DNA from: Candidatus Anaeroferrophillacea bacterium
Lineage (GTDB): Bacteria > Desulfobacterota > Anaeroferrophillalia > Anaeroferrophillales > Anaeroferrophillaceae
Reading direction: 5' to 3'
NCBI GenBank assembly: GCA_016933675.1
Contig: JAFGAM010000001.1
Span: 21,181-85,180, forward strand
Length of the DNA stretch: 64,000 nt
The notes beneath the pieces are model-generated. The model was given only the letters and a program-made list of their open reading frames with translations. It was not told the DNA's origin and ran no database searches. This document shows positions 9,893 through 62,204 of the stretch, one piece after another. The position numbers were made by a program, and so were the translations under genes. Positions within the stretch are counted from its first letter, which is position 1. The number at the start of each line of letters is the position of its first letter.

Positions 9893-9893
<1 letters not shown>
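8706..9893 (-). CDS. THUMP-domain class I SAM-dependent RNA methyltransferase (RlmL/YpsC-like)
   Basis: It has PMCGSGT and NPPYGERL motifs. Its start overlaps the argB stop (TGATG). Confidence 0.8.
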
Positions 9894-10831
<938 letters not shown>

Positions 10832-44644: not shown

Positions 44645-44649
44645 ACGCG

Positions 44650-44898
44650 TCAATCTCCCAGCAGTTCGGCAAGACAGGCGGTCAGCTCCCGCACCGTGCG
44701 GATGTCCGCCAGCCGGTTGAGGGGAATGGAGATGTCATACACCTCCTCGAGGGCGTCGACGATTTCCATCACCTTGAGTGAATCGACCGCCAGGTCAGCG
44801 ATCAGATCGGTGGTTTCGGCAATCGCTTCCCGGGTTCCGGTCACGGCGGCGAGAACACCGCGGACGGTTTCAAAAAGGTCGGCACGGTTGTCAGTCAT
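44650..44898 (-). CDS. Acyl carrier protein (dedicated, sphingolipid-type)
   Basis: It is 82 aa with the phosphopantetheine-site motif LAVDSLKVMEIV. It lies directly upstream of spt. Confidence 0.85.
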   Translation of the reverse strand: MTDNRADLFETVRGVLAAVTGTREAIAETTDLIADLAVDSLKVMEIVDALEEVYDISIPLNRLADIRTVRELTACLAELLGD

Positions 44899-44954
44899 AA
44901 TGAACGTATCCTCGATGGCCTCCGTAACACCCCCATCGCCTTCGCGGCGCAGCC

Positions 44955-45028
44955 GGCGAAATCCGGAACCGTTAGGGTGCCATCCATTTTTGCCGCATGT
45001 GCCGGCAGTGGTTACGGTTCCATCAACC
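44955..45028 (+). repeat. Two adjacent intergenic repeat family members (fused form plus 3' box form)
   Basis: They read GGCGAAATCCGGAACCGTTAGGGTGCCATCC and CCGGCAGTGGTTACGGTTCCATCAACC. They lie in the gap upstream of acp, antisense to it. Confidence 0.85.
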
Positions 45029-45078
45029 GTGGAAGGTGATGCCCGCACCCGGTTGCCCCCGGCCGGCAACCGCCGGAT

Positions 45079-46101: not shown

Positions 46102-47878
46102 GGCGCGAGGCGCCCGCCGCCGCGGGGTCACCCATGACGGCAGCATCAAAATCCGGATTGCGGCGGAGGAAATCCCGCCGGGCGGTGGTCCGGGAAAGCT
46201 TGCCGGAGGATGTCTGGGGCAGGGTATGGGGCGGCACCAGATCGACGTAGCAGTCAAGCCCGAAGGCCTCGCGCATCAGGCCCCGCAGCCGGTCGATAAA
46301 CCGCAGGCGCTCGTCCTGATCACCCATCCGGGCCTGCACCACCAGCACCACGATCTCCCCCCCGGCGGCATCGACGGAGAAGGCGGCAACATCGCGCATG
46401 CGGATCCCGGGCAGGGTCTCGGCCAGTTCCTCAAGATCCTGGGGCCAGATATTCCGCCCATTGACGATGATGAGATCCTTCTCCCGGCCGGTGATCACCA
46501 GGGTACCTTCGGCAAGGTAGGCAAGGTCACCGGTATTGAGCCAGCCGTCCCCGGGCAGGGCGGCGGCGGTGGCACCGAAGTCGTCAAAATAGCCGTCCAT
46601 GACGCTGGCACCGCGGACATGCAGGATGCCGCAGCGGCGTTCGGGCAGGGTATTGCCGGCCTCGTCGCGGATGGCCACTTCGATGCCGGGAAGGGGCGGG
46701 CCGCAACGGACGAATTCACGGCTCTCGCCGATGACCGCCGCATCCCGCGGCACCGGCACCGACGCCTGCTCCGCCACCAGCCGGGCGGAGGAAACACATT
46801 CGCTTTTGAGCCCGGCGGACAGGGGGGAAAAACTCACTGCCAGGGTGGCCTCGGCCAGGCCGTAGGCGGCGACGAAGGCCTTGGCGGAGAACCCGGCGGG
46901 GGCGAACCGGTCGGCGAAGCCGCGCAGAACATCGGTACGGATGGGCTCGGCACCGACGCCGGCGATGCGCCAGGAAGACAGATCACAGCCGGCGATCTCG
47001 GCCTCCCGCACCCGTCGGGTACACAGGGCATAGCCGAAGGTGGGACTGAAGGAGATGGTGCCCTGGTTGCGCGACACGAGTTCCGGCCAGCAGCGCGGCC
47101 GCAGGGCGAAATCGCGGGTCTTGAGATAATCCACCGAGCGCTGGGTGGCGAGCGGCGCGAGGAGGAAGCCAACAAGACCCATATCGTGATAGAACGGCAG
47201 CCAGGAGATCGAGCGATCATCTTCCCCCACCCGGAGCCCGTAGCGGCCGATGGCCGCAAGATTCGCCATCAGCGCCCGCTGGGAGATCATCGCCCCGCGG
47301 GGCGCGCTGGTACTGCCGGAGGTATACTGGATATAGGCCGGTTCGTCGGCGGCCAGGGGGTCGGGATCTCCCGCCTCCGGCAGGCGGCACAGATCGCCGG
47401 CGGTGCCGACAAAGGTGAGCTCGAGGCCCGCGGCCGCCTCGGCGAGGAACGGCAGAAACTCCGCCGGCGACAGCGCCGCCGCCGCCCGCGATGCCCGCAG
47501 CATGGCGTGCAACTGCCGCACCAGCCGCTGATGACCGCCCAGATGGATGGCCGCGGCCAAGGGCACCGGGACCAGCCCGGCAAACTGGCAGGCAAAAAAC
47601 AGCCGGACGAAATCCGGCTCGGTATCGGCCACCAGGGCGATGTGGGAGCCACGGGGCATCCCGAGGGCGGCAAGACGGCGGGCCAGCACCCGAACGTCAT
47701 CCCCCAGGACGGCATAGGGCAGCACCGCGTCAAGCCCACCGCGGCGGGAATAGAAGCTCATCCCGGTAGCCCCCCCGGCGGCATATTCCAGGGCGTCGGC
47801 CAGCGAGGTGAAATCACCCTGCCGCAACGGTATCCGGCTCGATGTTGGCGCAGGCAATAACATGTTGATTAAACACAT
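46058..47878 (-). CDS. Fatty acyl-AMP ligase / acyl-ACP synthetase (FAAL-type adenylate-forming enzyme)
   Basis: It has AYIQYTSGSTSAPRG and WLPFYHDMGL motifs. Confidence 0.85.
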   Translation of the reverse strand: MCLINMLLPAPTSSRIPLRQGDFTSLADALEYAAGGATGMSFYSRRGGLDAVLPYAVLGDDVRVLARRLAALGMPRGSHIALVADTEPDFVRLFFACQFAGLVPVPLAAAIHLGGHQRLVRQLHAMLRASRAAAALSPAEFLPFLAEAAAGLELTFVGTAGDLCRLPEAGDPDPLAADEPAYIQYTSGSTSAPRGAMISQRALMANLAAIGRYGLRVGEDDRSISWLPFYHDMGLVGFLLAPLATQRSVDYLKTRDFALRPRCWPELVSRNQGTISFSPTFGYALCTRRVREAEIAGCDLSSWRIAGVGAEPIRTDVLRGFADRFAPAGFSAKAFVAAYGLAEATLAVSFSPLSAGLKSECVSSARLVAEQASVPVPRDAAVIGESREFVRCGPPLPGIEVAIRDEAGNTLPERRCGILHVRGASVMDGYFDDFGATAAALPGDGWLNTGDLAYLAEGTLVITGREKDLIIVNGRNIWPQDLEELAETLPGIRMRDVAAFSVDAAGGEIVVLVVQARMGDQDERLRFIDRLRGLMREAFGLDCYVDLVPPHTLPQTSSGKLSRTTARRDFLRRNPDFDAAVMGDPAAAGASRHGDGGDDPRTRREG

Positions 47879-47940: not shown

Positions 47941-49092
47941 ATGATGATGATGATGATGAACAAAACCCTGCACATCACCCCGGTACGCACCCGCCGCCAG
48001 CGGGAACAATTCATCCGCCTGCCGTGGCGGTTGTACCACGGCGATTCCTGCTGGGTTCCGCCGCTACTGGTCGAGCGACGCCGGCATCTGGATCCGCGGC
48101 ACAACCCCTTTTTCCACCACGCCGAGGTCGACACCTGGCTCGCCACTGCCGCCGGCCTCCCGGTGGGGCGGATCAGCGCCCAAGTGGATCACCTGCACCA
48201 GGAACGCTACGGCGACGGCGCAGGGTTCTTCGGCCATATCGACGCCGTCGACGACCCGGCGGTGTTCGCCGCCCTGCTCGAGACCGCCGGCGACTGGCTG
48301 CGGGAACGGGGCATGCGCACCGTCCGCGGCCCGTTCAACTTTTCCATCAACCAGGAATGCGGCCTGCTGGTGGACGGCTTCGACTCCCCGCCGATGGTTA
48401 TGATGGGCCATGCGCCATCCTGGTATGCCGCCCGGCTGGAGGAACAGGGTTTAGCCAAAGCCATGGACATGCTGGCCTGGCGGGTGAACGCCGACTTCAC
48501 CCCGCCGGCCTTCCTCACCCGCATGGCGCCGCGGCTGGCCGGGCGCGTACGCCTGCGTCCGCTGGACAACCGCCGCTTCGACGCGGAACTGGACCTCATC
48601 CGGGAGATCTTCGAAGACGCCTGGCAGGACAACTGGGGCTTCGTCCCCTTCACCGCCGAGGAACTCGATGAGCTAGGCCGCAACCTGAAGTTCCTCGTCC
48701 CCCCCGAGCTGGTCCGGTTCGCCGAGGTAGACGGTGAGCCGGCGGCAATGATGGTGGTGTTTCCCAACGTCAACGAGGCCATCCGGGATCTCGACGGCCG
48801 ACTGCTGCCACTGGGCTGGCTGCGCCTGCTGTGGCGGCTGAAGGTATCCGGCGTCAAAACCATTCGGGTACCGCTGATGGGCGTCCGCCGCCGCCTCCAA
48901 AACAGCCGGCTAGGAGCGGCCCTCGCCCTGATGCTGATCACCTCGTTACAGGAAGAAAGCCTGCGGCGTGGCGTCGAGACCGCGGAGATGTCGTGGATCC
49001 TCGAAAACAACGAGGGCATGAGCCACATCAACGAAGCCATCGGCGGCGTGCCCTACAAGCGCTACCGGATCTACGCCAAGGAACTGCCATGA
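47941..49092 (+). CDS. Large GNAT-fold N-acyltransferase (bacterial ceramide synthase bCerS-like candidate)
   Basis: It is 383 aa with the acyl-CoA-site-like motif RRRLQNSRLGAAL. It is divergent from the spt-acp-reductase-ligase operon. It starts with six consecutive ATG codons. Confidence 0.6.
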   Translation: MMMMMMNKTLHITPVRTRRQREQFIRLPWRLYHGDSCWVPPLLVERRRHLDPRHNPFFHHAEVDTWLATAAGLPVGRISAQVDHLHQERYGDGAGFFGHIDAVDDPAVFAALLETAGDWLRERGMRTVRGPFNFSINQECGLLVDGFDSPPMVMMGHAPSWYAARLEEQGLAKAMDMLAWRVNADFTPPAFLTRMAPRLAGRVRLRPLDNRRFDAELDLIREIFEDAWQDNWGFVPFTAEELDELGRNLKFLVPPELVRFAEVDGEPAAMMVVFPNVNEAIRDLDGRLLPLGWLRLLWRLKVSGVKTIRVPLMGVRRRLQNSRLGAALALMLITSLQEESLRRGVETAEMSWILENNEGMSHINEAIGGVPYKRYRIYAKELP

Positions 49093-49904
49093 ATTCTGCA
49101 ACAATCTTTCGCGCCGTGGTCCTGGCGGGTGACCGCGGTCCCGGCGACCCGGTGGCCCGGGAGGCCGGAACTTCATGCAAGGCCCTGGTCCCCGTCGCCG
49201 GCCGGCCGATGATTTTCCATGTTCTCGACACCCTCCACCGCGCCGCCGCCATCGCCCCCGCACCCCTGGTCTCGGGCAGCGGCGAGTGTTTGCTCGGGCA
49301 GAGCCCGGAACTGCTCCGGCGGCTGGCCGCCGGCACCGTCACCTGGCGGGAGAACGAATCATCTCCAAGCCGCAGCGCCCTGGCGGCATTCACCCAGCTG
49401 CAACAGGAGTACGGGAACGCCCCCGTCCTGCTGACCACCGCCGACCACCCGCTGCTGACCCCGGCGATGGTGGATCATTTCTGCAACCGGGCCGCGGACA
49501 GTGGTCTCGACATCGCCGCCGGAGTGGTACCGGCGACACTGGTTGCCGGGGCCTTCCCGGAAAGCCGGCGCACCGTCACCCGGCTCCGCGACGGCGGCAT
49601 CTGCGGCGCCAACCTTTTCGCCCTGCTGACCCCTCGGGCGGGGCAGGCGCTCTCTTACTGGCGCCGGGTGGAAGCGCAGCGCAAGAGCCCGCTGAAGATC
49701 GTCCGCACCGTGGGGTTCTTCACCCTGCTCAGCTACCTTTTCGGCCGCCTGACCCTGGCCGCCGGCTGCCGGCGGCTGTCGGCAGCCATGGGGGTACGGG
49801 GCGGCACGGTGGAGATCCCCTTCCCCGAGGCGGCCGTCGATGTCGACACCCCCGCCCACCGGCAACAGGCGGAGGAGATTATCGCCCGGCGCCACTCACC
49901 CTGA
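49089..49904 (+). CDS. MobA-like NTP-transferase family protein
   Basis: It has AVVLAGDRG...KALVPVAGRPM, a nucleotidyltransferase N-terminal motif. There is an ATGA overlap with the GNAT gene. Confidence 0.65.
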   Translation: MNSATIFRAVVLAGDRGPGDPVAREAGTSCKALVPVAGRPMIFHVLDTLHRAAAIAPAPLVSGSGECLLGQSPELLRRLAAGTVTWRENESSPSRSALAAFTQLQQEYGNAPVLLTTADHPLLTPAMVDHFCNRAADSGLDIAAGVVPATLVAGAFPESRRTVTRLRDGGICGANLFALLTPRAGQALSYWRRVEAQRKSPLKIVRTVGFFTLLSYLFGRLTLAAGCRRLSAAMGVRGGTVEIPFPEAAVDVDTPAHRQQAEEIIARRHSP

Positions 49905-50077: not shown

Positions 50078-51298
50078 TCATTTTCCGTGCGGCACGGTTT
50101 CAAGGAAGCGACCGTGTTCGTTCAGTTCCTCCAGCCGGCAACTCCACACCAGCCGGCCGTCATGAACGGTGATATCGGGACAACTGTCGCACATGTCCTG
50201 GCGACCGTCGGCCTCGAAGTTCACCGGCTGGATGATCATGAAGGACTGGATATAAGCCGCCTGCAACAGCGCCGCGGGCCGGTCCCGGATCTCCCGGCCG
50301 ATGGCGGCGAGAATCCGGCGGCTGCCGCGGTCGAAAAGGGAACCGGCCAGGGCCTGCAGACGGCCGAGCCGGGTGGCCCGGGGTCTGGCATAGGACAGGT
50401 AGCGGCCGGCAAACAGGTGATTGCCGGTCTGGATGACCTCCATCATCCGCGGCGACATGTAGCCCATCACCTTGCCGTTGTATACCGTCCGACTGGCCAG
50501 CAGCCACTTGAATGAATCGGGGCGGGCGGTACCGTTGAGGTAAGCCGCGGGCTCGTAGGCCGGGTCGGCGACGCGGATCTGCGCCACCGCGTCGGCGGCG
50601 TAGAGGGTATCCTCGCCGCCCCACTCGGGCTCCTCGTAAAGGCTGGTCATTTCCATCCGCTTCCCGCCGGCAAAGTAGTCGAAATCGCCGGCAAGGGAAG
50701 GGGAACGAAAGAGGATGAAAACCATGGTCTGTACCAGCCGGGCGTGTTCCCCGGCCCAGCGGACCATGGCGGGAATCTCGTGCAGATTGTGGTCGCTGAT
50801 GGTGGCGTTGAAGGAGCAGGCGATGTTGCCGGCTTGCCCCAGCATGCGGGCGAAACGCAGCCGGAGATCGTTCAGTCCGGTCTCGGTTTCGACCTGGAAG
50901 TCGGGCCGCTTCTGCGAGGTGTCGATGTGGAAGGTAAAACCATAGACCCCGGCCCGCTTCAGCTCCATCAGGAGCGGATAGTCGAGGGCGACGCCGTTGG
51001 TGTTGACGATGGGCTTCCAGCCCAGGTCACGCACCCGCCGCACCAGTTCGACGATGTGCGGGTACACCAGCGGGTCGCCGCCGGCGATGCTCATGCAGTC
51101 ACTGCGCCGCAGCCGTTTGAAGGTCTCCAGTTCCGCCTGCACCTCGTCGAGGCTCTTGTGTCGCGGGTTGACCTGGCTACGGTAGCAGCCCTTGCAGTGA
51201 AGATTGCAGTAGGTGGTGGGCTCGAGCCACGAGATGCCGTTGTCGGCGTAGTTCCACGGCAGGCGGTAATAGTCCAGGTGATTGAGGGGAGCGGTCAT
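50078..51298 (-). CDS. Radical SAM enzyme of unknown specificity
   Basis: It has the CNLHCKGC cluster motif (CxxxCxxC), the GGDPL glycine motif, and a C-terminal Cys-rich tail CDSCPD...SC. The start is MTAPLNHLDYY. Confidence 0.8.
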   Translation of the reverse strand: MTAPLNHLDYYRLPWNYADNGISWLEPTTYCNLHCKGCYRSQVNPRHKSLDEVQAELETFKRLRRSDCMSIAGGDPLVYPHIVELVRRVRDLGWKPIVNTNGVALDYPLLMELKRAGVYGFTFHIDTSQKRPDFQVETETGLNDLRLRFARMLGQAGNIACSFNATISDHNLHEIPAMVRWAGEHARLVQTMVFILFRSPSLAGDFDYFAGGKRMEMTSLYEEPEWGGEDTLYAADAVAQIRVADPAYEPAAYLNGTARPDSFKWLLASRTVYNGKVMGYMSPRMMEVIQTGNHLFAGRYLSYARPRATRLGRLQALAGSLFDRGSRRILAAIGREIRDRPAALLQAAYIQSFMIIQPVNFEADGRQDMCDSCPDITVHDGRLVWSCRLEELNEHGRFLETVPHGK

Positions 51299-51476
51299 CG
51301 TAACCTCTGAAATCGTTGTCAACACATCGACCACCAGGCGCCGCTTGAGGGCCAATGAGCGGCTACCGGCACCAGGCGACATCGTTGGTCAGGGGGAAAG
51401 CGAACGCTCGGGAAACCCCGGCATGCCCCCCGGAAACGGAGGTCCGTCCACCCCGCCGAGCATCCGTAATGCTTGA

Positions 51477-52250
51477 TCAGACCGAAGAAACCGCCGCCGC
51501 GAGGTCGGCGGCACACGGTATTTCCCCGCACGATTCACCGACTACCCGTGCGGCGGCGGCGATATCGGCGGGACAGTCGACCTCGGCCCAGGGATGGCCG
51601 GCGATGCAGCAGGTCCGGACGGCGTGGTCGCGGGCCAGTTCGTCGATCACCGACAGGTACCAGCGCCGGAGGCCGGCGGGATGGCGCATCACCGCCTCGA
51701 CGGAGCGCCGGAACAGCGCCGCCCCGTGACCGCGGAACAGCAGCAGACCGATGGACTCGGCCCCCACAACGTCGGCAGCCAAATCCTTGCCGATGCGCAG
51801 CAGCCGGTCACCTTCCACCGCGACCTTCATGTCATCGTCGTCGTAGACCGCCTTGCGATCAGTGGTCACGGTGACATCCCGGGGTTCTCCGGCCAGCAGG
51901 GTCTCCAGCAGCGGTGCCCGGAAGATGGTATCCCCGTTCAGCAGGATGAAATCGCCGTCCATCTCGCCGCGCACCACCCAGCAGGTCGCCAGGTTGTCGG
52001 AAACCAGGTAAAAGGGATTGAAGACGGTTTGCACCGGCTCTCCGGACCAGGCCACCGCCAGGTAATCCTCCACCAGGTCGGCGGCGTAGCCGGTAACCAC
52101 GCGGATCTCCTCGACACCGCAGCCAAGCAGGGCTTCGATCTGCCAATCGATCAGCGGCCGGCCCGCGATCGGGATCATACATTTGGGACGTTTTGCGGTC
52201 AGCGGCAGCAGCCGCTTCCCCTGGCCGGCACTGAGAATGATCGCCTTCAC
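51477..52250 (-). CDS. Sugar/alcohol-phosphate nucleotidyltransferase (LicC / IPCT-like)
   Basis: It has the AIILSAGQGKRLLPLT...PKCMIPIAG signature. A GTG start at 52250 is preceded by the SD GAAGG, and the ORF track extends it to 52292. Confidence 0.8.
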   Translation of the reverse strand: MKAIILSAGQGKRLLPLTAKRPKCMIPIAGRPLIDWQIEALLGCGVEEIRVVTGYAADLVEDYLAVAWSGEPVQTVFNPFYLVSDNLATCWVVRGEMDGDFILLNGDTIFRAPLLETLLAGEPRDVTVTTDRKAVYDDDDMKVAVEGDRLLRIGKDLAADVVGAESIGLLLFRGHGAALFRRSVEAVMRHPAGLRRWYLSVIDELARDHAVRTCCIAGHPWAEVDCPADIAAAARVVGESCGEIPCAADLAAAVSSV

Positions 52251-52451
52251 GCTCTGCCTTCCCCCCTCACCCGGCCCGGGAGGCCGTGGCACCGCCCCGC
52301 GGGCATCCGCTCCCGGTCATCCGTAGCCGCTCTTGAGCCAAAAAGAAACCAATGATTACAAAAATTTTTATAACAAACGCGCCTTCTTCACGGCATTCCA
52401 CGGCAGTTCAGTCGACACATTTCAGGATACGCTCATTCCCCGGTCAGGAGG

Positions 52452-52542: not shown

Positions 52543-52809
52543 TCCATCATGAAAATCGTGTTTTGCGCGCGATAGTATGATATATTGTCCCCGCTGTCAA
52601 GCCAGGAGCACGGCAGCGGCCGGCAAAAGGCAAAGAAACACCCGTTGGCCGCCGCCGAACAGCTTATCGAAACATGGATCAAGGGGTCCGGCAGGCCGGG
52701 CACCCGCATGGTGCCCGGAAAAAACCTTTCCGGGCAATGGATTGACGGCTTCGCCACCGCCGCCGAATATCCGCGGCATCACTCATACGTTCGCATGTCA
52801 CAACATACC

Positions 52810-53928
52810 ATGGTCCCGTCCATCCTCGAACGCTATACAATGCGTGAAATCGGCCGCCCCATCGTCGGCGTCGCCGCCGTGCTGGTGCTGATCTTCGCCG
52901 GCTACTGCACCGTCCTCTTTCTCGACGACGCGGTCAACGGCCTGCTTTCCCCCGCTGCCGTGGGTATCCTCATCGCCCTGAAGGTCTGCATCGCCCTGGA
53001 CGTTCTGCTGCCCGTATCCCTTTTTCTGGCAGTGATCCTCGCCCTGGGCCGCTTCCACGCCGACCGCGAACTGTTGGCCATGGAGGCCGCCGGGGCGGGG
53101 TATTGGCCGGTGGTAAAGGCGGTACTGGTACTCGGGCTGCTGCTGGCGGTGATCGTCGGCCTGGTTTCCGGCTTCGTGCGCCCCCGGGCCTACGAACAGA
53201 TGTACCGGCTCAAGGCCCGGGGGAAGAACGAGCTGAACCTCGCCCACATCGAGGCCCGACGCTTCTACGAACTGGGCGCCGGACGGGACGGGGTATTCTT
53301 CGCCGAGCGGGTGGACGACCGCGACGGACTGGTTCACGGCGTCCATGTCTGGCTGCAGGAAGGATTCCGCCGTCAGGTCATCCAGGCCCAGAGCGCCGTT
53401 CAGGGAGTCGACCCGGATACCGGCGACCAGGTGATCGAATTCCACGACGGTTATCACTACGATATGGACGATGCCGCCGGCAGCTGTCAGGTGGTGTCTT
53501 TCCGGCGGCTGCGCCGCCGCATCACCCCGGCGCTGGCGCTGGGCGGCGCCGCGGCGAAACTGAAGGCGCTGTCCACCGTCCGGCTGGCGCTTTCCGGGCG
53601 GCCGGAGGAAATCGCCGAGGTGCAGTGGCGCCGGTCCACCGGGGTCACCACCCTGCTGCTCGCCCTGCTCGGCATTCCGTTGAGCCGGACCGTACCCCGG
53701 CGCGGCAAGCATGCCCGGGTAACCACCGCCTTCGTGATCTTTTTCATCTATTACAACGTGCAGCTGATGGCGCGCTCCTGGGTCGAGCAGCAGGTCGTGC
53801 CCGCTTTTCCGGGCCTCTGGTGGGTACCGTTCCTGCTCGCCTGTCTGACCGTTTCCTGGCTGGCTCCCCGGCTGCGGGCGGCATCCGCGCCGCGGCCGAC
53901 CGGGAGCGACGCCGGAGGGCGCGGATGA
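52810..53928 (+). CDS. lptF: LPS export ABC transporter permease LptF (YjgP/YjgQ family)
   Basis: It has the N-terminus SILERYTMREIGRPIVG, six TM segments and a periplasmic insert. The start was chosen at MVPSILERY. Confidence 0.8.
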   Translation: MVPSILERYTMREIGRPIVGVAAVLVLIFAGYCTVLFLDDAVNGLLSPAAVGILIALKVCIALDVLLPVSLFLAVILALGRFHADRELLAMEAAGAGYWPVVKAVLVLGLLLAVIVGLVSGFVRPRAYEQMYRLKARGKNELNLAHIEARRFYELGAGRDGVFFAERVDDRDGLVHGVHVWLQEGFRRQVIQAQSAVQGVDPDTGDQVIEFHDGYHYDMDDAAGSCQVVSFRRLRRRITPALALGGAAAKLKALSTVRLALSGRPEEIAEVQWRRSTGVTTLLLALLGIPLSRTVPRRGKHARVTTAFVIFFIYYNVQLMARSWVEQQVVPAFPGLWWVPFLLACLTVSWLAPRLRAASAPRPTGSDAGGRG

Positions 53929-54998
53929 ACCTCATCGCCCGCCACATCGCCCGCCGGTTTTTCTTCTGGTGGCTGCTTTGCGGCCTGCTGCTGGTGGGTC
54001 TGTTCTCGCTCTTCGATCTGGCGGCGCAGATCGACGATCTGGAGGCCGGCTACCGCCTGGCGGACGCCCTGCTGTACGTCGCCCTGAAGGTTCCCGGACG
54101 CTTCATCGAAACCGCCCCGCCGGCCATCCTGCTGGCGGGAGTGGCCACTCTGGGCATCATGGCCGAGCACCAGGAGCTGCTGGCATTACAGGCCGCCGGG
54201 ATCGGCACCGCCCGGATCGCGTGGCAGATCGTCAAACCGGCACTGGCGGTGCTGCTGCTGCTCATGCTCGCCGGGCAGTTTATCGCCCCGCCCATGGAAC
54301 AACGGGCGTGGGTCATCCGTGAACAGGGGCGGTCGCAAACCGGGACGTTTTTACCCAACACCGGGTTCTGGGTCCGCCGGGGACGGCAATTCATCAATCT
54401 TCGCCCCGACCGCACCGGCCATGCCGCCGGCCGCGCCATCGAAATCTACCGCTTCGCCGGTGACGGCCGTCTGGAATCCCTGATCCAGGCACCCGAGGTC
54501 TCGCTGGACAACGACAACGAATGGATCCTGCACCGGGCCCGGACCAGGCACTTCGACGGCGGCAACGGCGGAATTATCCGGGCAAGCGACCCCGAAATTC
54601 GGATTCAACCGCCGCTGACCGGCACCGAAACCCGGATATTCAACCTGCCGGCCCGGACCCTGTCGTTCAGTGAGCTGCACGCCCTCATCGGGCGGTTGCG
54701 GGAGCGCCGACAGTATGCCGGCACGTTCCGGACGGTATTCTGGCAGAAGCTCACCCAAGCACCGCTCGCCCTGGCGATGCTGGCGCTGGCATTTCCCTTC
54801 ACCCTCGGGCGGCCGCGGCAGATGGGACTGGGCTGGCGGATCATGGTGGGGGCGGTAACCGGGGTGCTGGGCTATTTCATCCATCAGGTTTTCGTCAACC
54901 TCGGTCTGCTCTGGTCATGGCCGGCGCCGCTCACGGCCATCGTCCCCATCGGGGTTTTCCTTCTCGCCGCACCGCTGCTGCGGCCGCGTCGCGGCTGA
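53925..54998 (+). CDS. lptG: LPS export ABC transporter permease LptG (YjgP/YjgQ family)
   Basis: It starts MNLIARHIARRF and has the same topology as lptF. There is an ATGA overlap with lptF. Confidence 0.8.
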   Translation: MNLIARHIARRFFFWWLLCGLLLVGLFSLFDLAAQIDDLEAGYRLADALLYVALKVPGRFIETAPPAILLAGVATLGIMAEHQELLALQAAGIGTARIAWQIVKPALAVLLLLMLAGQFIAPPMEQRAWVIREQGRSQTGTFLPNTGFWVRRGRQFINLRPDRTGHAAGRAIEIYRFAGDGRLESLIQAPEVSLDNDNEWILHRARTRHFDGGNGGIIRASDPEIRIQPPLTGTETRIFNLPARTLSFSELHALIGRLRERRQYAGTFRTVFWQKLTQAPLALAMLALAFPFTLGRPRQMGLGWRIMVGAVTGVLGYFIHQVFVNLGLLWSWPAPLTAIVPIGVFLLAAPLLRPRRG

Positions 54999-55976
54999 CC
55001 CATGGCGAGGCAGCAGACGGATGGCGGGGGGGATCGCGATAAATCCGCCGGCATGGCAAACGAAACGATACACTGTCTCCTCCAGCTCCCAGGCGGTCGG
55101 CAGCGGGCGCAGCCGATAGCGGGCGATTACCGCCCGGTACGCCCCCGCCCGGCCGCCGGCAGTAGCGGCGGCCAGGCCGCGGACCGGCACCGGACCGGCG
55201 GCCGTATCCAGTTCCCGCTGCATAAGACGATGGGCATGACCGTGCAATACCAGTTCGACGCCGCGGCGGCGCAAAACCGCAAGCAGCTGCACCCCGTCCG
55301 CCAGGCGCTTGCGAGGGCTGACGACATCGGGAAACGGCGGATGATGGAGCAGCACGACACGAAATTTCCCCGCCTCGGCGCCGGCGGCCAGGGCGGTATC
55401 GAGGTCCGTCAGCTGGCGACGGCCCAACCGGCCGAGCGCCAGCAGGGGATTGCCGCCGGCCACGGCCGAAGACAGGCCGATGAACATCACCGGGCCCCGG
55501 ATGCGGACGACAGGAAAGGGATCGACCCCACCGGCAGCCGCGACCGGCGGCGACCGGCGGGCGTCGGAACGGCAGTACGGCAGCCATGCCGGCAGCCCCC
55601 GGACCAGGGATCGGCGGCCGGTGGCATCGTGGTTGCCGGGAATCACGGTAATATCGCCGGGATCACCCAGTCGTGCGAGCCAGGCGGCCGCCTCAAGGTA
55701 TTCCGCCCGCGTCCCGAGACTGGTGAGATCGCCGGTAACGACCGCGTGATCCGGCCGCCGGCGATGCAGCTCCCGCTCCACGGCGGTGAGAACCGCGGTA
55801 TCGTACACGTGGCGACGGCTTAGGTACCAGGCCGGCAGCCCGAGAACCGCTTTGAGGCTCAACTCGTACCATCGCGGTCGGGGCCGGGTGAAATGCGGAT
55901 CGGAAAGGTGGACGAAGGTAAACCCGGGGTTGTCCTCCGCCGCCTGATCCGTTACATGGTGCATTGGCTGATCCAT
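54915..55976 (-). CDS. Calcineurin-like metallophosphoesterase
   Basis: It has the motifs HLSDPH, TGDLT, GNHD, LLHHPP and HGHAH. Its 3' end overlaps lptG convergently by 84 nt. Confidence 0.8.
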   Translation of the reverse strand: MDQPMHHVTDQAAEDNPGFTFVHLSDPHFTRPRPRWYELSLKAVLGLPAWYLSRRHVYDTAVLTAVERELHRRRPDHAVVTGDLTSLGTRAEYLEAAAWLARLGDPGDITVIPGNHDATGRRSLVRGLPAWLPYCRSDARRSPPVAAAGGVDPFPVVRIRGPVMFIGLSSAVAGGNPLLALGRLGRRQLTDLDTALAAGAEAGKFRVVLLHHPPFPDVVSPRKRLADGVQLLAVLRRRGVELVLHGHAHRLMQRELDTAAGPVPVRGLAAATAGGRAGAYRAVIARYRLRPLPTAWELEETVYRFVCHAGGFIAIPPAIRLLPRHGSAATRPQQRCGEKENPDGDDGRERRRP

Positions 55977-56090
55977 AACCCGGGGGAACCCGGCAGTCTC
56001 CGGTATGGTTTTTGCCGAACCATCGGCAGCAGGCCGGAATCGGTGCCGACAGCTCGATTTCGGCATTGTCATCGCCTCGCTGAAACGGCC

Positions 56091-56245
56091 AATTACCGTA
56101 ATTCCACGGGTCCGCCCCGTCCCCCGGCTGCGGCGCGCCGAGAATCCGGAGCGGTTACCGTACCATCACGTTTTACCGCACTTCGGCGTGGTTACGGTTC
56201 CATCAACCTTGCCCGCTTGCGAGCGCGGTTACGGTTCCATAAACC
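56091..56245 (+). repeat. Array of four intergenic repeat family 3' boxes (56091, 56153, 56189, 56227), the second with a 5' box at 56136
   Basis: The boxes read AATTACCGTAATTCCAC, GGTTACCGTACCATCAC, TGGTTACGGTTCCATCAACC and GGTTACGGTTCCATAAACC. The last three are 37 nt apart. The array ends 70 nt before the operon ATG. Confidence 0.85.
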
Positions 56246-56315
56246 CTGACGGACGTGCCAGCCGACGGCGGCACGCCGGGCGGGACGTATCCCCGACCAA
56301 CCGCAGGAAAAGGAC

Positions 56316-57515
56316 ATGATCATGACCCTGAACATCCACCTGTTTTCCGACCCGCCGATAACCCTCTGGGGGCTGTCGAGCCGCGAGCGGCTGTCCCGGA
56401 CGCTGGGTAAAAAGCGGAACATCAACTGGATCTACCGCCTCGATGCCGCCCCACCGGCGGCTGACATGCTCCTGCTGGCGGGCGATTACCTCTACGACCC
56501 CCGGATACCTGAGGCCCTCGTCCGGGCGCCCGACACCATTCTCTACGACGCCCCGCCGGCGGCCGGCGGCCGCCCGACCGCCGCCCACATCTCCGCCGCG
56601 CGACGATCCGAAGTGCTGGGCCACCTGCAGAACCCGGCGACCATACCCGCTCCGGACGGGGTAACATGCCTCACCCCCGCCGAACTGGTCTCCGGATTCC
56701 AGCACCGGCTGCGCAAGATCCAGCCCCCCTATGTCCTGCCGATCACGGTGGAAAACCGCAGACGGCTGGAGAAACTGCTCTTCACCGGCTCCTACAAGGG
56801 GGTAACCGATCTGGTGACCAAGTGGCTCTGGCCGTTGCCGGCCCGCCACGTGACCCGCTGGTGCGCGACGCAAAACATCACCCCCAACCAGGTCACCAGC
56901 ATGAGCCTGGCCATGGTAATCATCGCCAGCCTGTGCTTCTACCACGGCCTCCTCGCCGCCGGCCTGGCGGCGGCCTGGCTGATGACCTTCCTGGACACGG
57001 TGGACGGCAAACTGGCCCGGGTGACGGTAAACTCCAGCACCTTCGGGCATCTCTTCGACCACATCATCGACCTCGTTTCGCCGCCGCTGTGGTACATATT
57101 CTGGGGCATGGGGGTGGAACACCGGCATCCGGACGCCTTCGGCGGCTATCTGGCGCCGCTTCTCTGGCTGCTCATCGGCGGCTACGTCGCCGGCCGGCTG
57201 GTAGAACTGGTGTTCAAACGGTGGCTGGAACCGACGGGAATCTTCTGCTGGCGGCCGCTGGACTCGGTCTTCCGCCTGATCACCGGACGCCGCAACCCCA
57301 ACCTCCTGCTGCTCACCGGCAGCCTCATCGCCGGCCGACCGGATATCGGCCTCCTGCTGGTGGTTATCTGGACCGTCATCTCCAGCATATTTCTCGTCAT
57401 CCGGCTGGAAGTCGGCCGGCGAGAGAAACACGTCGCCGGGGGACTGCGCTCCTGGCTGCAGGACGATACGGTACCGGCATCCCCGCTCATCCGCGGCTGG
57501 TTTACGGACCGATGA
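56316..57515 (+). CDS. CDP-alcohol phosphatidyltransferase family protein with an N-terminal cytoplasmic extension of about 170 aa
   Basis: It has the full signature DTVDGKLAR-x8-G-x3-D-x3-D plus TM helices. The N-terminal domain is unassigned. Confidence 0.85.
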   Translation: MIMTLNIHLFSDPPITLWGLSSRERLSRTLGKKRNINWIYRLDAAPPAADMLLLAGDYLYDPRIPEALVRAPDTILYDAPPAAGGRPTAAHISAARRSEVLGHLQNPATIPAPDGVTCLTPAELVSGFQHRLRKIQPPYVLPITVENRRRLEKLLFTGSYKGVTDLVTKWLWPLPARHVTRWCATQNITPNQVTSMSLAMVIIASLCFYHGLLAAGLAAAWLMTFLDTVDGKLARVTVNSSTFGHLFDHIIDLVSPPLWYIFWGMGVEHRHPDAFGGYLAPLLWLLIGGYVAGRLVELVFKRWLEPTGIFCWRPLDSVFRLITGRRNPNLLLLTGSLIAGRPDIGLLLVVIWTVISSIFLVIRLEVGRREKHVAGGLRSWLQDDTVPASPLIRGWFTDR

Positions 57516-58648
57516 GCGACAACCCGTGCCCGACGTATATTCCGGTTCACCGCCCGGCGAGCCGTTTCCCGGCAACCGTACCGGGGGATGAGTCCCCGGG
57601 GACCGCGCCGCATTCCCTGCATCAACCCTTTACGCCACCGGACACCGCCGCGGGGCCTCCGGCATCACCGGCGGTCTTCCGGCAGGTGGGCGTGCTGACC
57701 AATCCGCGCAGCGGCGGCAATCGCCGTAACGACGGCCGCGTGGCCGGGCTGCTGGCCGCACGGCTGCCCGCCGCCCGGCATGTTCTCGCCCGCACCGCGG
57801 GGGAGATCGAGCACGCCCTGGACGAGTTCCGCCGCGCCGGCATCGACCTGCTGGTGATCAACGGCGGCGACGGCACGGTTCAGGCGGCCCTCACCCACAT
57901 CTACGCCGTCGCGGCACCGGGTTCGTGGCGGCCGGACCTGGCCCTGCTCCGCGCCGGGACCGCCAGTATGCTGGCCCGGGACGCCGGACTTGCCGGCAGT
58001 CCGCCGGCAGCGGCGGCGCAACTGGCGGCGGCACTCACGGAAGGAGGAAAGCCCGGCCGCCTGCACGTGGTTGAACGGCATGTCCTGCGGGTGGAACACC
58101 ACCCCGAAAAACCGCCCCAATGCGGCATGTTCTTCGGCTGCGGTGCCGTCTGCCGGGGCATCGACCTGTGCCACGGCAGCCTCAACCGCGCGGGCATCCG
58201 CGGGGAACTGATGCCCGGCCTGATCATGCTGCGCCAACTTATAGACCTGGCCCGCGGCCGCCCCGACCGCCTGGGCCCGGTGCGGGCCGGGGGCATGATC
58301 GACGCCCGGCCGCTACCGGCATCATCCTGGCTGCTGATCGTCGCCGCCACCCTGCGACGGCTGGTGCTCGGCATGTACCCGTTCTGGGGGACACCGGAAG
58401 CGCCGCTGCACCTCACCGCGATCGAGACCCGGGCGCCGCACCTGCTGCGGCGGGCGGGCCGCATCATGCGTGGTCGGCCAGACGTTTCCATGACGCCGGC
58501 ACACGGTTTCCACAGTGCCGCCGGCAAACGGATGGAACTGGATTTTACCGGCGACTTCACCCTCGACGGGGAGATATACACCGCCGCCGGATCGCTGACC
58601 GCCACTACGACGGGACCGGCGCGGTTCCTGGTCTTCGAACATGGTTGA
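57512..58648 (+). CDS. Diacylglycerol-kinase-family lipid kinase (ceramide/sphingosine kinase-like candidate)
   Basis: It has the motifs LTNPRSGG and LLVINGGDGTVQ. There is an ATGA overlap with the upstream gene. Confidence 0.8.
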   Translation: MSDNPCPTYIPVHRPASRFPATVPGDESPGTAPHSLHQPFTPPDTAAGPPASPAVFRQVGVLTNPRSGGNRRNDGRVAGLLAARLPAARHVLARTAGEIEHALDEFRRAGIDLLVINGGDGTVQAALTHIYAVAAPGSWRPDLALLRAGTASMLARDAGLAGSPPAAAAQLAAALTEGGKPGRLHVVERHVLRVEHHPEKPPQCGMFFGCGAVCRGIDLCHGSLNRAGIRGELMPGLIMLRQLIDLARGRPDRLGPVRAGGMIDARPLPASSWLLIVAATLRRLVLGMYPFWGTPEAPLHLTAIETRAPHLLRRAGRIMRGRPDVSMTPAHGFHSAAGKRMELDFTGDFTLDGEIYTAAGSLTATTTGPARFLVFEHG

Positions 58649-59579
58649 TACGTTGCTCACCCTGGTCCGGCGGGAAGCCGGCAAACCGGTTCCGGCTGCG
58701 GTCCAGACCATCGCCGAAGCCGCCCGGAAACGTCACCGCACCGCGGTCACCGCGGTCATCCATTACGGTTCCTGCCTGCGGCGACCGGAATCCGTCGCCG
58801 CGGGCATCATCGATCTCTACCTGCTGGTCGACAGCTACCGCGCCGCCGGCCTGGGACCGGTATCTGCCGGCGCCTGCCGGCTGCTGCCGCCCAACGTCTA
58901 CTACCTTGAGACGGAACACGACGGGGTTGCCGTCCGCACCAAATACGCCCTCATGCACCGGGACGACTTCTTCCGCGGCACCCGACACTGGTTCCATGCC
59001 TATATTTGGGCCCGCTTCGCCCAGCCCTGCCGGCTGGTGTGGGCAGCGGACGAGGCAGAGCGTAACGTGGTTGCCGCCGCCCTGGCGGAAGCCGTGCAGC
59101 GGTTCATTCGGGAAGTGCAGCCGCTCATGAAGGGACCGTTCAGCGCCCGGGAGCTGTGGCTCGCCGGCTTCGGTCTGAGCTACGGCACCGAGCTGCGTTC
59201 GGAAACCACCGACCGCGGTGCGGAACTCTACGCCGCCGCCGCCGACTACTACGCCGGTGCCGCCCGGGCGGTGCTCGGGCCGCCGCTGCCGGCGGCAGCC
59301 GGCGAAGAACCCCGCCATACCGTGCCGGCACGCGGGCCAATCGCCGCCAGCCGGCGGCGGATCGCCTGGTTCCTGCGCCGCCGGCAGAGCAAAGTCCTCT
59401 CGGTACTGCGCCTTCTGAAGGCGGCTTTCACCTTCACCGACGGCCCCGCCTACCTGATATGGAAGATTCGCCGCCACAATCCGGATATCATCGCCGCCGA
59501 CGACCCGCGCCTGCAACGACCGGTCACGGCCCTGGCGGTACTTATCTGGCGACTCGTGCGGCGGCGTCCCCGCTGCTGA
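58641..59579 (+). CDS. Tam41/Mmp37-like nucleotidyltransferase (CDP-diacylglycerol-synthase-type) candidate
   Basis: Three blocks align by eye to yeast Tam41. HYGSCLRR aligns to GYGSGVF, IIDLYLLV to QIDIVLGV, and NVYYLE...RTKYALMHRDDF...WARFAQPCRLV to GVYFNP...VKYGVVS...LAGRLQKPVKIL. SYGTELR aligns to SYAGDIR. There is an 8-nt overlap with the kinase gene. Confidence 0.55.
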   Translation: MVDTLLTLVRREAGKPVPAAVQTIAEAARKRHRTAVTAVIHYGSCLRRPESVAAGIIDLYLLVDSYRAAGLGPVSAGACRLLPPNVYYLETEHDGVAVRTKYALMHRDDFFRGTRHWFHAYIWARFAQPCRLVWAADEAERNVVAAALAEAVQRFIREVQPLMKGPFSARELWLAGFGLSYGTELRSETTDRGAELYAAAADYYAGAARAVLGPPLPAAAGEEPRHTVPARGPIAASRRRIAWFLRRRQSKVLSVLRLLKAAFTFTDGPAYLIWKIRRHNPDIIAADDPRLQRPVTALAVLIWRLVRRRPRC

Positions 59580-60435
59580 CCGGGCTGCCGGATTCCACCG
59601 CAACGGCCACTTCATCCGCCGCCACCGCTCCTTCCGCAACCCTTCTTTCCGCCCGCCAACGGCTCAGTTTCCGCCTGATCCGGTCGAGCTTGCGCCCCTC
59701 GTCCGGAAAGCTCACCGGCAGCTCCAGGGCCCGTTCCAGTTGTTTGATCGCCGCCGGCCGATCGCCCAGGGCATAATAAACCCGGCCAAGGTAGTAGCGA
59801 TGGATAATCCGGTCATGGATGGCAATGGCCTGCCGCAACAGGTACTCGGCATCATCGAGTGAAGCCGGCGGCAGGCCGCCGGCGAGCCGGACGAAGGAGC
59901 GGACCAGCGGATTGCGGGAGGCGATACGGTAATGCCACAGGCCGAGTACCAACAGCGAGATATCGTCGTCGGGATCGATGACCAAAGCACGGTCGATGAC
60001 TTCGCGTATCTCTCCCGCCCGACCGACGCCAGCGGCGGGACCATCCTCCCCGGCCCGCGCACCGAGGGCAACGGCAAGCCACTTGTACCCCTCGTCATCA
60101 TCAGGATTCGCGGCAATCGCCTGCCGCGCCCGTTCCTCGGCCCGGCGAAACTGTTCCTTCCGCCCGTCCGCGCTGTCAGCCGCCAGTCCCAGCTGGTACC
60201 GCGCCCGGGCCCGACGCCAGAGAACGGCGGCGACAAAATCGTGCGGCCCGGCGGCATCCAGACATTGCAGGGCCGCAACCGCATTGTTTCGTTCCAGCAA
60301 TCGGTCCACCGTCGCGAAATCGCCGCCGGCAACCAGCCCTACCGTTCCGGCCGCCGCCGGCGTGCACCGCACCGGCACTCCGAAACCCAGGAAAACAACG
60401 GACAGCAGCAGCACGATCACCTTCATCCGCCGCAT
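59542..60435 (-). CDS. Exported TPR-like protein
   Basis: It has the signal peptide MRRMKVIVLLLSVVFLGFG and helical repeat-like content. Its start overlaps the stop of the ABC exporter gene. Confidence 0.6.
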   Translation of the reverse strand: MRRMKVIVLLLSVVFLGFGVPVRCTPAAAGTVGLVAGGDFATVDRLLERNNAVAALQCLDAAGPHDFVAAVLWRRARARYQLGLAADSADGRKEQFRRAEERARQAIAANPDDDEGYKWLAVALGARAGEDGPAAGVGRAGEIREVIDRALVIDPDDDISLLVLGLWHYRIASRNPLVRSFVRLAGGLPPASLDDAEYLLRQAIAIHDRIIHRYYLGRVYYALGDRPAAIKQLERALELPVSFPDEGRKLDRIRRKLSRWRAERRVAEGAVAADEVAVAVESGSPVSSGDAAARVAR

Positions 60436-62204
60436 CGCACCTCCGCGGTCAGTTGGCGGCCGGAGGCGGGCGACATGACGCCGCCATCCAGGCACCAGAC
60501 CTCGTCGGCAAGTTCCGCCAGCGCCGGCCGGTGGGAGATGGCCAGCATGGCAATCCGTCCCTTGAGCCCTGTCAGGGTGCGGCAGACAGCGGCCTCACTA
60601 TCCTCATCCAAAGCACTGGTGGCCTCGTCGAGGATAAGCAGCCGCGGTCGGTGAGCGAGGGCCCGGGCGATGGCGATCCGCTGACGCTGACCGCCGGAGA
60701 GTTTGCCGCCGCGTTCACCGACGACGGTATCGAGACCATCCGGCATCCCGGCGATGAACTCCGAGGCCCCGGCCGCCCGCACCGCCGCCTCGACCTCCGC
60801 GGTCGTCACCCCGGGGTTACCGATGATGATATTGTTGCGAATGGTATCGTGGAGCAGCACCGTATCCTGGGGAACATAGCCGATCTGCCGGCGCCAGTGG
60901 CGCAGGTCGATTTCGTCCAGCGGCACCCCGTCAATCAGGACGCGGCCCGCGGACGGCCGCAACAGCCCGGTGAGGAGATCGACCATGGTGGTCTTCCCGG
61001 CCCCCGAGTGGCCGATGACGGTAACCAACCCGCCGGCCGGAATGGTCAGGTCGATACCGGCGAACACGACATTCCCGTCGTAGGCGAAGCTCACCCCGTC
61101 AAGACACACCTCGCGGGTCAGATCAAGCTTCCGGCTGCCCCCCTCACCTTCGCGCAGTCGGTCAGCCTCGGCGATCTTCGCCTGCAGCGACCAGTAGGCA
61201 CTCTCACAGGCACCGAGTTCCTGGTACTGGCGCTGCATCTTGCCCAGCTGGCCGAGAAACCGGGCGAGGAGAAAGGTCAGCATCATCACCGTCGGCAGCT
61301 CCATGGGCCAGATCACCAGGGTGGCAAAGAGGCCGCCGATGACCAGCAGGGTCAGAATCGGCTCCTGCAATCCCTTGAGCGCAGCCTTGCTATATGCCTG
61401 TTTGCGGAGGGCATGGTTCAGTTTGACGGCATCATACTCCAGCAGGCGGTCGGCCAGGTCGTCCCGGCCCATGGACTTGAGCGGCTTCACCGACTGCAAG
61501 CTGTCGACCAGGCGAGCGGCCAGCGATTGCAGCAGTTCGGTCTGCCGCCGTCCGGCGCGCTTGGTCTTGCGCACCAGCCGGCTGAGCACCAACACCACGA
61601 GCACCGCGCCGCCGTAGGCCGCCAGGGTGATCTTCCAGGATACCAGCAGCGCCACCAGACTGTAGACCGCCGCCTGAATGAGATAGGTGATGGTCATGGC
61701 GCCGTAGAGATAGGCCTGGGCCGCCCGCATCACCTCGGTGGCGATGGCGTTGGCCAGCGAACCGATGGGCTGATTGAGAAAATAGGACCAGTCGGAAGCG
61801 ATGAAGGAACGCAGCATGGTGAGCCGCAAATCGGTGGCGACATGGGCCACGGTGTAGCCCACCTTCTTGTCCGCCAGCAGCACGAAAACGCTCTTGACGA
61901 GAATCAGGGTAACGACCACCCCGAGAAGGGAGCCGATGGTCGGAACAATTCCGACAACTTCCAGCGCACGGATAACATGCACCCCGACCCCGTGGTCGGG
62001 CGTGCCGGCGCCGGCTTCCGGAGCGGTGGAAAACGCCAGATTAAGCACCGGCAGAAGGGCTGTAAGGCCGATCCCTTCAACGATGCCGGCCACCATCAGG
62101 GCGGCCAGCATGAATATCGTTCGGGCCGGATAGCGGCGACCGATATGCCAGAGCAAGTGCATGATTTTACTTTTTTTCCTCTCTTCACGCGCCCGTTTCA
62201 ACAA
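60423..62204 (-). CDS. ABC exporter, fused TMD-NBD (MsbA-like lipid flippase candidate)
   Basis: It has six N-terminal TM helices, Walker A GHSGAGKTT, signature LSGGQRQR and Walker B LLILDEATSALD. The start is either TTG at 62204 or ATG at 62162. Confidence 0.85.
   Translation of the reverse strand: MLKRAREERKKSKIMHLLWHIGRRYPARTIFMLAALMVAGIVEGIGLTALLPVLNLAFSTAPEAGAGTPDHGVGVHVIRALEVVGIVPTIGSLLGVVVTLILVKSVFVLLADKKVGYTVAHVATDLRLTMLRSFIASDWSYFLNQPIGSLANAIATEVMRAAQAYLYGAMTITYLIQAAVYSLVALLVSWKITLAAYGGAVLVVLVLSRLVRKTKRAGRRQTELLQSLAARLVDSLQSVKPLKSMGRDDLADRLLEYDAVKLNHALRKQAYSKAALKGLQEPILTLLVIGGLFATLVIWPMELPTVMMLTFLLARFLGQLGKMQRQYQELGACESAYWSLQAKIAEADRLREGEGGSRKLDLTREVCLDGVSFAYDGNVVFAGIDLTIPAGGLVTVIGHSGAGKTTMVDLLTGLLRPSAGRVLIDGVPLDEIDLRHWRRQIGYVPQDTVLLHDTIRNNIIIGNPGVTTAEVEAAVRAAGASEFIAGMPDGLDTVVGERGGKLSGGQRQRIAIARALAHRPRLLILDEATSALDEDSEAAVCRTLTGLKGRIAMLAISHRPALAELADEVWCLDGGVMSPASGRQLTAEVRCGG

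Follow-up and report, generated by a model that had tools for sequence, protein, structure and literature searches.

A cpgABC-like operon in a Desulfobacterota genome and the proposed place of a Tam41-like enzyme in ceramide phosphoglycerate synthesis

Which enzyme activates the lipid, and which adds the head group, when a bacterium turns ceramide into an anionic phospholipid? The question is raised by three overlapping open reading frames (ORF1, ORF2, and ORF3) at positions 56,316 to 59,579 of a 64,000-nucleotide stretch of DNA from Candidatus Anaeroferrophillacea bacterium (contig JAFGAM010000001.1; the whole stretch is referred to below as the window). An earlier note, made from the sequence alone, had read these frames as a cytidine diphosphate (CDP)-alcohol transferase, a lipid kinase, and a Tam41-like nucleotidyltransferase that together run a hitherto undescribed route from ceramide via ceramide-1-phosphate and CDP-ceramide to a phospho-alcohol ceramide. 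The locus is in fact a delta-proteobacterial member, from a Desulfobacterota-type metagenome-assembled genome (MAG), of a known, partly characterised system; to judge from sequence comparison, ORF1-3 are probably the cpgA-cpgB-cpgC operon within a complete cluster for the synthesis and export of anionic ceramide (poly)phosphoglycerates. The claim of novelty has thus been overtaken, as the Tam41/CDP-diacylglycerol (DAG)-synthase domain of Caulobacter CC_1161 and its homologs in delta-proteobacteria were noted by Olea-Ozuna et al. 2024, who proposed a ceramide in nucleoside diphosphate (NDP)-activated form together with a condensing enzyme yet to be named (PMC11324152).

Gene order and pairwise identity carry the assignment. 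In the window, the genes for bCerS, a CofC-like nucleotidyltransferase, a CpgD-like protein, LptF2, LptG2, ORF1, ORF2, and ORF3 are ordered, gene for gene, as in the Pseudomonas luteola locus FOB45_16295..16340 (L048 of our survey), where the series aas, HIT, bCerS, CofC-like, CpgD-like, LptF2, LptG2 precedes the homologs of ORF1, ORF2, and ORF3. These ten P. luteola genes have been published as orthologs of CC_1165, 1157, 1154, 1153, 1152, 1156, 1155, 1159, 1160, and 1161, respectively (PMC11324152), so that FOB45_16305 is the CC_1154 ortholog and FOB45_16315 the CC_1152 ortholog. ORF1 is 45% identical to FOB45_16330 (L048, 7802-8953; CC_1159 ortholog), ORF2 is 34% identical to FOB45_16335 (9009-9950; CC_1160 ortholog), and ORF3 is 40% identical to FOB45_16340 (CC_1161 ortholog); the P. 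luteola and Caulobacter cpg proteins themselves share 29-40% identity (S2F Table, PMC11324152). Compared with Caulobacter crescentus cpgABC (CCNA_01217-01219 / CC_1159-1161, part of the CC_1152-CC_1168 cluster), the window has the same three families, with the order unchanged and all on one strand, and both clusters contain spt, acyl carrier protein (ACP), cerR, acyl-ACP synthetase, bCerS, the CofC-like nucleotidyltransferase, CpgD, a metallophosphoesterase, and LptF2/LptG2. Ceramide genes, which the earlier note placed next to the operon, are present (spt, ACP, cerR-like, AMP-binding, and bCerS-like). There are also differences: the alpha- and gamma-proteobacterial versions are 30-50% identical to the window proteins; homologs of the HIT protein CC_1157, of CC_1167, and of the Wzx-like CC_1166 were not seen in the window (LptC2/CC_1168 lay outside the search); and the window has in addition a radical SAM enzyme, a TPR protein, and an MsbA-like ABC exporter. 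The last of these is the window's candidate flippase, whereas the Caulobacter cluster has the Wzx-like CC_1166 in this role.

The coupling of the three frames is exactly as had been claimed: ORF1 and ORF2 overlap by 4 nt (ATGA at 57512..57515), and ORF2 and ORF3 by 8 nt (58641..58648, with the ATG of ORF3 at 58641 and the TGA of ORF2 at 58646..58648). A scan for promoters and terminators found none exceeding shuffled expectation. Several further frames overlie the operon and are high-GC shadow ORFs, namely an antisense frame of 448 residues (56229..57575, minus strand), 56666..57511 in the plus frame of ORF2, and 58605..59639 on the minus strand; when neighbouring ORFs were clustered, the apparent homologs of such frames in other loci proved to be shadows of the same real genes.

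In Caulobacter, the three families have been assigned distinct roles. CC_1160 (CpgB) is a ceramide kinase (PMC11324152); a cpgC (CC_1161) mutant keeps ceramide-1-phosphate and has no ceramide phosphoglycerate (CPG); and a cpgA (CC_1159) mutant keeps CPG and loses only the second phosphoglycerate (CPG2). CC_1152 (CpgD) makes CDP-glycerate, the proposed donor for CpgA (2025 paper in the Journal of Biological Chemistry, JBC). It is against this background that the properties of the window proteins can be read.

ORF2 matches PF00781 (47.9 bits; cut-off, 23.6) and has the two expected motifs (NPRSGG, residue 64; GGDGT, residue 118). Ceramide phosphorylation has been shown biochemically for the Caulobacter ortholog, which also phosphorylates DAG in vitro (PMC11324152, S1 Text), and we infer that ORF2 is likewise a ceramide kinase. 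Its only ATG start candidate is at 57512, with alternative GTG starts at 57686 and 57692, and conservation of the kinase core sets in near residue 58; as approx. 10 homologs align from residues 2-18, the longer protein is plausible. The core is preceded by a Pro-rich stretch of approx. 57 residues (57512..57685) that is kept in a minority of homologs.

ORF1 matches PF01066 (41.5 bits; cut-off, 22) and contains the complete CDP-alcohol phosphotransferase signature D-x2-DG-x2-AR-x8-G-x3-D-x3-D, in which D227, D230, G231, A234, R235, G244, D248, and D252 are invariant among 29 homologs; the motifs that the earlier note read in ORF1 and ORF2 are thus confirmed, each with its Pfam family over the cut-off. 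The AlphaFold2 (AF2) model of ORF1, with a predicted local distance difference test score (pLDDT) of 86, predicts an N-terminal, cytidylyltransferase-like cytosolic domain (approx. residues 1-165) followed by a membrane domain of six helices. Its best Foldseek match is AF2299 (387 columns, full length, E = 3e-10), and another top match, AfIPCT-DIPPS (4mnd), also superposes over the full length; template modelling (TM) scores are 0.57-0.67 at approx. 16% identity, and the six-helix fold matches those of AF2299, PIPS, and DIPPS. Both AF2299 and AfIPCT-DIPPS have an N-terminal cytidylyltransferase-like domain (PMC4634129), and the superposition upholds what had been offered as a weak guess, that the N-terminal extension of ORF1 is nucleotidyltransferase-like. 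This domain does not contain the GxGxR loop of the CpgD-like enzyme, and an hhalign comparison of the ORF1 family with the CpgD-like protein fell short of significance (E = 0.062), with only an 'LL.GD' segment aligned.

The likeness of ORF1 to AF2299 and AfIPCT-DIPPS, i.e., the two-domain architecture and the six-helix catalytic domain with the full signature, bears on the nature of its donor. The two archaeal enzymes do not process lipid donors, and the pocket in which AF2299 binds soluble CDP-glycerol is small and hydrophilic. A CDP-lipid donor is common among bacterial CDP-alcohol phosphotransferases (PMC4634129). In contrast to both structures, the acceptor proposed for ORF1 is a lipid head group. 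An inositol-phosphoceramide product was also considered, prompted by the best NCBIfam matches of ORF1 (archaetidylinositol-phosphate and phosphatidylinositol-phosphate synthases, IPCT/DIPPS), and was rejected: all these matches are far under the cut-off, no inositol-phosphate synthase was found among the genes scanned, and the partner nucleotidyltransferase groups with CpgD. Two alphaproteobacterial loci (L066, 2534-3256, and L032, 2-796, both on the minus strand) contain, near bCerS, an additional CDP-alcohol phosphotransferase paralog that is shorter and shares 35-39% identity with ORF1; it might be a candidate for a different head-group step.

Related loci reveal how these genes travel together. 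In a scan with one genome per species, at least 588 genomes had an ORF3 relative, and 80 loci were examined, with hosts among the Desulfobacterota, Nitrospirota, Myxococcota, Calditrichota, and Alpha-, Beta-, and Gammaproteobacteria; co-occurrence was counted within 10 kb on either side in the 52 loci that had at least 9 kb upstream. In 63 of the 71 related loci with enough flank, the gene immediately upstream of the ORF3 homolog is an ORF2 homolog, and the pair is adjacent in 46/52. The order CDP-alcohol transferase, kinase, Tam41-like protein recurs in P. luteola and approx. 34 further loci. In 41/52 loci, at least one ceramide-synthesis gene lies no more than 10 kb away; bCerS occurs in 36/52 and the CofC-like gene likewise in 36/52, mostly next to each other, and a metallophosphoesterase homolog in 37/52. 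An ORF1 homolog is present in 34 of these loci and absent from 18, and its presence follows that of the CpgD-like gene (25/34 loci with ORF1 vs. 0/18 without; Fisher p = 1.2e-7, uncorrected for phylogeny). By co-occurrence, the pathway divides into a core pair (the kinase and the Tam41-like protein) and an accessory pair (CpgA and CpgD). The accessory pair resembles Kennedy- or teichoic-acid-type activation (CDP-choline, CDP-glycerol, CDP-inositol) in that a soluble CpgD-like cytidylyltransferase and the membrane-bound ORF1 form a co-occurring module; it differs in that the donor would be CDP-glycerate and the acceptor the phosphorylated head group of a sphingolipid.

Six loci contain an ELM1-like gene (PF06258, E = 4e-53) directly downstream of the ORF3 homolog (L063, 6547-7665, where the two overlap, and L021, L044, L050, L060, and L079). 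These loci are gammaproteobacterial and have no ORF1 homolog, and the ELM1-like gene may be an alternative head-group module.

The remaining member of the operon, ORF3, gave no significant match of its own in Pfam or NCBIfam, and homolog profiles were needed. Of the Pfam families expected from the earlier note, those of ORF1 and ORF2 were found directly, while PF09139 (Tam41/Mmp37) stayed under its cut-off for ORF3 itself and was matched by 21 of 31 aligned homologs (best E = 2.7e-9). In total, 882 ORF3 homologs were found, many with a precomputed PF09139 match, and the family profile reaches S. pombe Tam41 (6ig2/6ig4) with E = 4e-5. The AlphaFold model of ORF3 (pLDDT 87.6; predicted TM score, pTM, 0.87) was compared with the PDB by Foldseek, and the five best matches are all Tam41 structures, of S. 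pombe or a Firmicute (E = 1.8e-8 to 7.4e-8, TM 0.51-0.61, approx. 280 columns, 12-16% identity); the next fold family, other nucleotidyltransferases, begins at E >= 2.8e-4. The likeness to Tam41 noticed by eye in the earlier note is thereby supported by profiles and by the predicted fold, which comprises a nucleotidyltransferase domain and a helical domain as in 6ig2, 6ig4, and 7ecd; the mismatch with the Tam41 fold that the earlier note had named as refuting its reading did not arise.

The motifs YGS, I-D-L, V-x-D, VYY, KY(A/G), and W..Y..RF..P are collinear in the ORF3 family, S. pombe Tam41, and the Firmicute Tam41, and they take the form YGS...IDL...VD, VYY, KYA, and W..Y.ARFAQP in ORF3; the family shows no variation at G43, S44, and D58. 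Of the canonical trio of acidic residues, Tam41 is reported to keep just one, and the single invariant Asp58 is consistent with this. Taken alone, the N-terminal alignments of these motifs (YGS and the single Asp) to 7ecd and 6ig2 are below significance, and a search with a 120-residue fragment of S. pombe Tam41 returned a single 92-residue fragment. Tam41 also has a C-terminal basic amphipathic membrane-binding helix (PMC7018664); the last 80 residues of ORF3 have a net charge of +15, with a helix at 290-308 of hydrophobic moment (muH) 0.67. On the strength of the model and the profiles, ORF3 resembles Tam41 in its fold and as a distant homolog, and the fold evidence strengthens its reading as a cytidylyltransferase. 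The expected lipid substrate differs from that of Tam41, being ceramide-1-phosphate and not phosphatidate.

A pathway can be proposed from these data. ORF2 (CpgB) would phosphorylate ceramide to ceramide-1-phosphate. ORF3 (CpgC), a putative peripheral-membrane enzyme of the Tam41 fold, would be needed for the conversion of ceramide-1-phosphate to CPG, as Caulobacter genetics indicates; by analogy with Tam41, it would most likely transfer cytidine monophosphate (CMP) from cytidine triphosphate (CTP) to the lipid phosphate, yielding CDP-ceramide, from which glycerate would displace CMP on ORF3 itself or on another transferase. The CpgD-like enzyme would supply soluble CDP-glycerate, and ORF1 (CpgA), as an AF2299-type enzyme, would transfer phosphoglycerate from it onto CPG to give a diphosphoglycerate lipid, a step that rests on Caulobacter genetics, CpgD biochemistry, and co-occurrence in the related loci. 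LptF2/LptG2 and the ABC exporter would then carry the product outward.

The linear route of the earlier note differs from this scheme in the role of ORF1, which would take CDP-ceramide from ORF3 and transfer ceramide phosphate to an alcohol, mirroring the CDP-DAG pathway. The presence of all three activities in one translationally coupled operon and the frequency of CDP-lipid donors among bacterial enzymes of this class speak for it. However, the Caulobacter cpgA mutant still makes CPG, CPG returns in a 1159/1160 double mutant when CC_1160 alone is supplied, ORF1 is dispensable for the ORF2-ORF3 pair in 18/52 loci and tracks the CpgD-like gene, and the structure closest to ORF1 uses a soluble donor; this makes the linear route rather improbable. 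From CpgD-like co-occurrence and Caulobacter genetics, the CDP donor of ORF1 is most likely soluble CDP-glycerate and not CDP-ceramide. Because the cpgA-mutant phenotype and the co-occurrence agree with the AF2299-type structure, CDP-glycerate:CPG phosphoglycerate transferase is the best reading of ORF1. Still less credence can be given to a DAG salvage route, in which ORF2 would phosphorylate DAG, ORF3 would make CDP-DAG without CdsA, and ORF1 would make a glycerophospholipid. The in vitro activity of CpgB on DAG would fit, and bacterial Tam41 homologs can synthesise CDP-DAG, but the ORF2-ORF3 pair lies among ceramide-synthesis genes both in the window and in the great part of the loci (41/52), and Caulobacter mutants lose sphingolipid species specifically. 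We rejected this reading on genomic context.

Harder to judge is the chemistry of ORF3. It is a tentative, though serious, possibility that ORF3/CpgC is a true CTP:ceramide-1-phosphate cytidylyltransferase and that the kinase/CpgC pair is a general module for ceramide-phosphate activation, with lineage-specific downstream enzymes and a CDP-ceramide consumer other than ORF1; the partners would be CpgA/CpgD here, the ELM1-like protein in gammaproteobacterial loci without ORF1, and radical SAM/LpxL-like proteins in anaerobes. Alternatively, ORF3 may not act as a cytidylyltransferase on ceramide-1-phosphate and could instead link glycerate to ceramide-1-phosphate through other chemistry, use ATP or GTP, or be a non-catalytic, degenerate Tam41 fold. 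Direct addition of glycerate was proposed by Zik et al., the 2025 JBC paper calls the mechanism of CpgC 'yet unidentified', and identity to Tam41 structures is low, with a score under the Pfam cut-off; moreover, sites of the Tam41 type keep one of three canonical acidic residues, so that the sequence is a poor guide to their chemistry. Set against this, direct esterification of a phosphomonoester requires activation (Olea-Ozuna et al., PMC11324152), and motifs from around the nucleotide pocket of Tam41 recur in collinear order, without variation, across the family, which makes a non-cytidylyltransferase ORF3 unlikely.

Several observations weigh against the assignment to cpgABC and the proposed route, and they should be considered together. 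ORF3 itself scores 14.1 bits on PF09139 (cut-off, 24; E = 0.03). Orthology with Caulobacter is transitive via P. luteola, and the CpgB and CpgC identities along the chain are 29-40%. The co-occurrence counts are limited to 10 kb on either side, and the loci are phylogenetically non-independent. Unbiased clustering of all ORFs of the 80 loci yielded no other broadly conserved family as a possible consumer of CDP-ceramide, and the term CDP-ceramide was absent from the literature searched, with no assay reported. Finally, with the extra radical SAM, TPR, and ABC genes, the end product may not be the same lipid as Caulobacter CPG2.

The genes around the operon (Table 1) complete the cluster. ATGA-type overlaps of 4 nt are also found at 49089..49092 (bCerS/CofC-like) and 53925..53928 (LptF2/LptG2), and the 3' end of the TPR gene overlaps that of ORF3 by 38 nt. 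In the CpgD-like protein, Met155 and Lys169 form a pair that all homologs keep (26/26), and their spacing equals that of Met147/Lys161 of CpgD, which contact glycerate; the pair points to the same head group. Sequence searches of the PDB with the two soluble nucleotidyltransferases returned no CpgD structures, only relatives of the LicC, IPCT, and TTHA0179 type, so that the case for CpgD is made by the P. luteola chain together with the Met/Lys pair. The LptF2/LptG2 paralogs are candidate sphingolipid exporter permeases, as a part in sphingolipid transport has been ascribed to Caulobacter LptF2/LptG2, whose deletion is lethal and which form a complex that binds LptB (bioRxiv 10.64898/2026.04.12.717747). 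CC_1158, the counterpart of the metallophosphoesterase, contributes to CPG2 formation (PMC11324152). A homolog of the ABC exporter adjoins spt in four loci (L003, L037, L051, and L077).

Table 1. Features of the cpg-like cluster in the window
Feature	Position	Strand	Basis
spt	43394..44653	-	PF00155
ACP	within 44650..45069	-	PF00550; ORF upstream end probably over-extended
cerR-like reductase	within 45079..46257	-	PF01370; ORF upstream end probably over-extended
Acyl-ACP synthetase (AMP-binding)	46058..47878	-	PF00501
bCerS-like ceramide synthase, CC_1154-like	47941..49092	+	no Pfam match; 52% identity to P. luteola FOB45_16305
MobA/CofC-like nucleotidyltransferase, CC_1153-like	49089..49904	+	PF12804; weak TIGR03552 cofC; 45% identity to FOB45_16310
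Radical SAM enzyme (CX3CX2C, 434 aa)	50078..51382	-	PF04055, 68 bits
CpgD-like CTP:phosphoglycerate cytidylyltransferase (LicC/IPCT-like)	51477..52292	-	PF12804, PF00483; 51% identity to FOB45_16315
LptF2 paralog	52585..53928	+	PF03739 (202 and 208 bits for LptF2/LptG2)
LptG2 paralog	53925..54998	+	PF03739 (202 and 208 bits for LptF2/LptG2)
Calcineurin-like metallophosphoesterase, CC_1158-like, divergent from operon	54915..56072	-	PF00149, 51.4 bits
CpgA-like CDP-alcohol phosphotransferase (ORF1, 399 aa)	56316..57515	+	PF01066, AF2 model, P. luteola identity
CDP-alcohol phosphotransferase signature, ORF1 residues 227-252	56994..57071	+	regular-expression match DTVDGKLARVTVNSSTFGHLFDHIID
CpgB-like DAGK-family lipid (putative ceramide) kinase (ORF2, 378 aa)	57512..58648	+	PF00781, motifs, P. 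luteola identity
CpgC-like Tam41-fold nucleotidyltransferase (ORF3, 312 aa), basic amphipathic C-terminus	58641..59579	+	homolog profiles, predicted fold, P. luteola identity
TPR protein (TPR/RMD1-like)	59542..60495	-	Pfam
MsbA-like ABC exporter, candidate flippase	60423..62204	-	Pfam

Among the lineage-specific extras, copies of the radical SAM gene (59-69% identity) occur in only four loci (L002, L006, L020, and L022) from Desulfobacterota, Geobacter, and Calditrichota MAGs, in which this gene is more conserved than the cpg genes; the enzyme may be responsible for an oxygen-independent lipid modification. In loci without ORF1, it is accompanied by a gene for an LpxL-like lipid A acyltransferase (PF03279, E = 1e-55; L002 7819-8766, L006 190-1134, and L022 12517-13455). 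A tblastn search of the whole 64 kb found no homologs of the HIT protein (CC_1157), a fatty-acid hydroxylase, or the ELM1-like and LpxL-like proteins.

Thus, the value that remains in this locus lies in the CDP-ceramide step, the division between core and accessory modules, and the lineage-specific additions, the radical SAM gene among them. The CpgC step is the very point singled out by the earlier note: CDP-ceramide, if true, would be a liponucleotide never observed, and, if shown, it would be the sphingolipid counterpart of CDP-DAG. The split between core and accessory pairs narrows the search space for the missing transferase. In Caulobacter, anionic ceramide phosphoglycerates can partly replace lipopolysaccharide and set sensitivity to polymyxin. 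As the cluster is found in the genomes of at least 588 species, ceramide phosphoglycerates may be a common component of the outer membrane.

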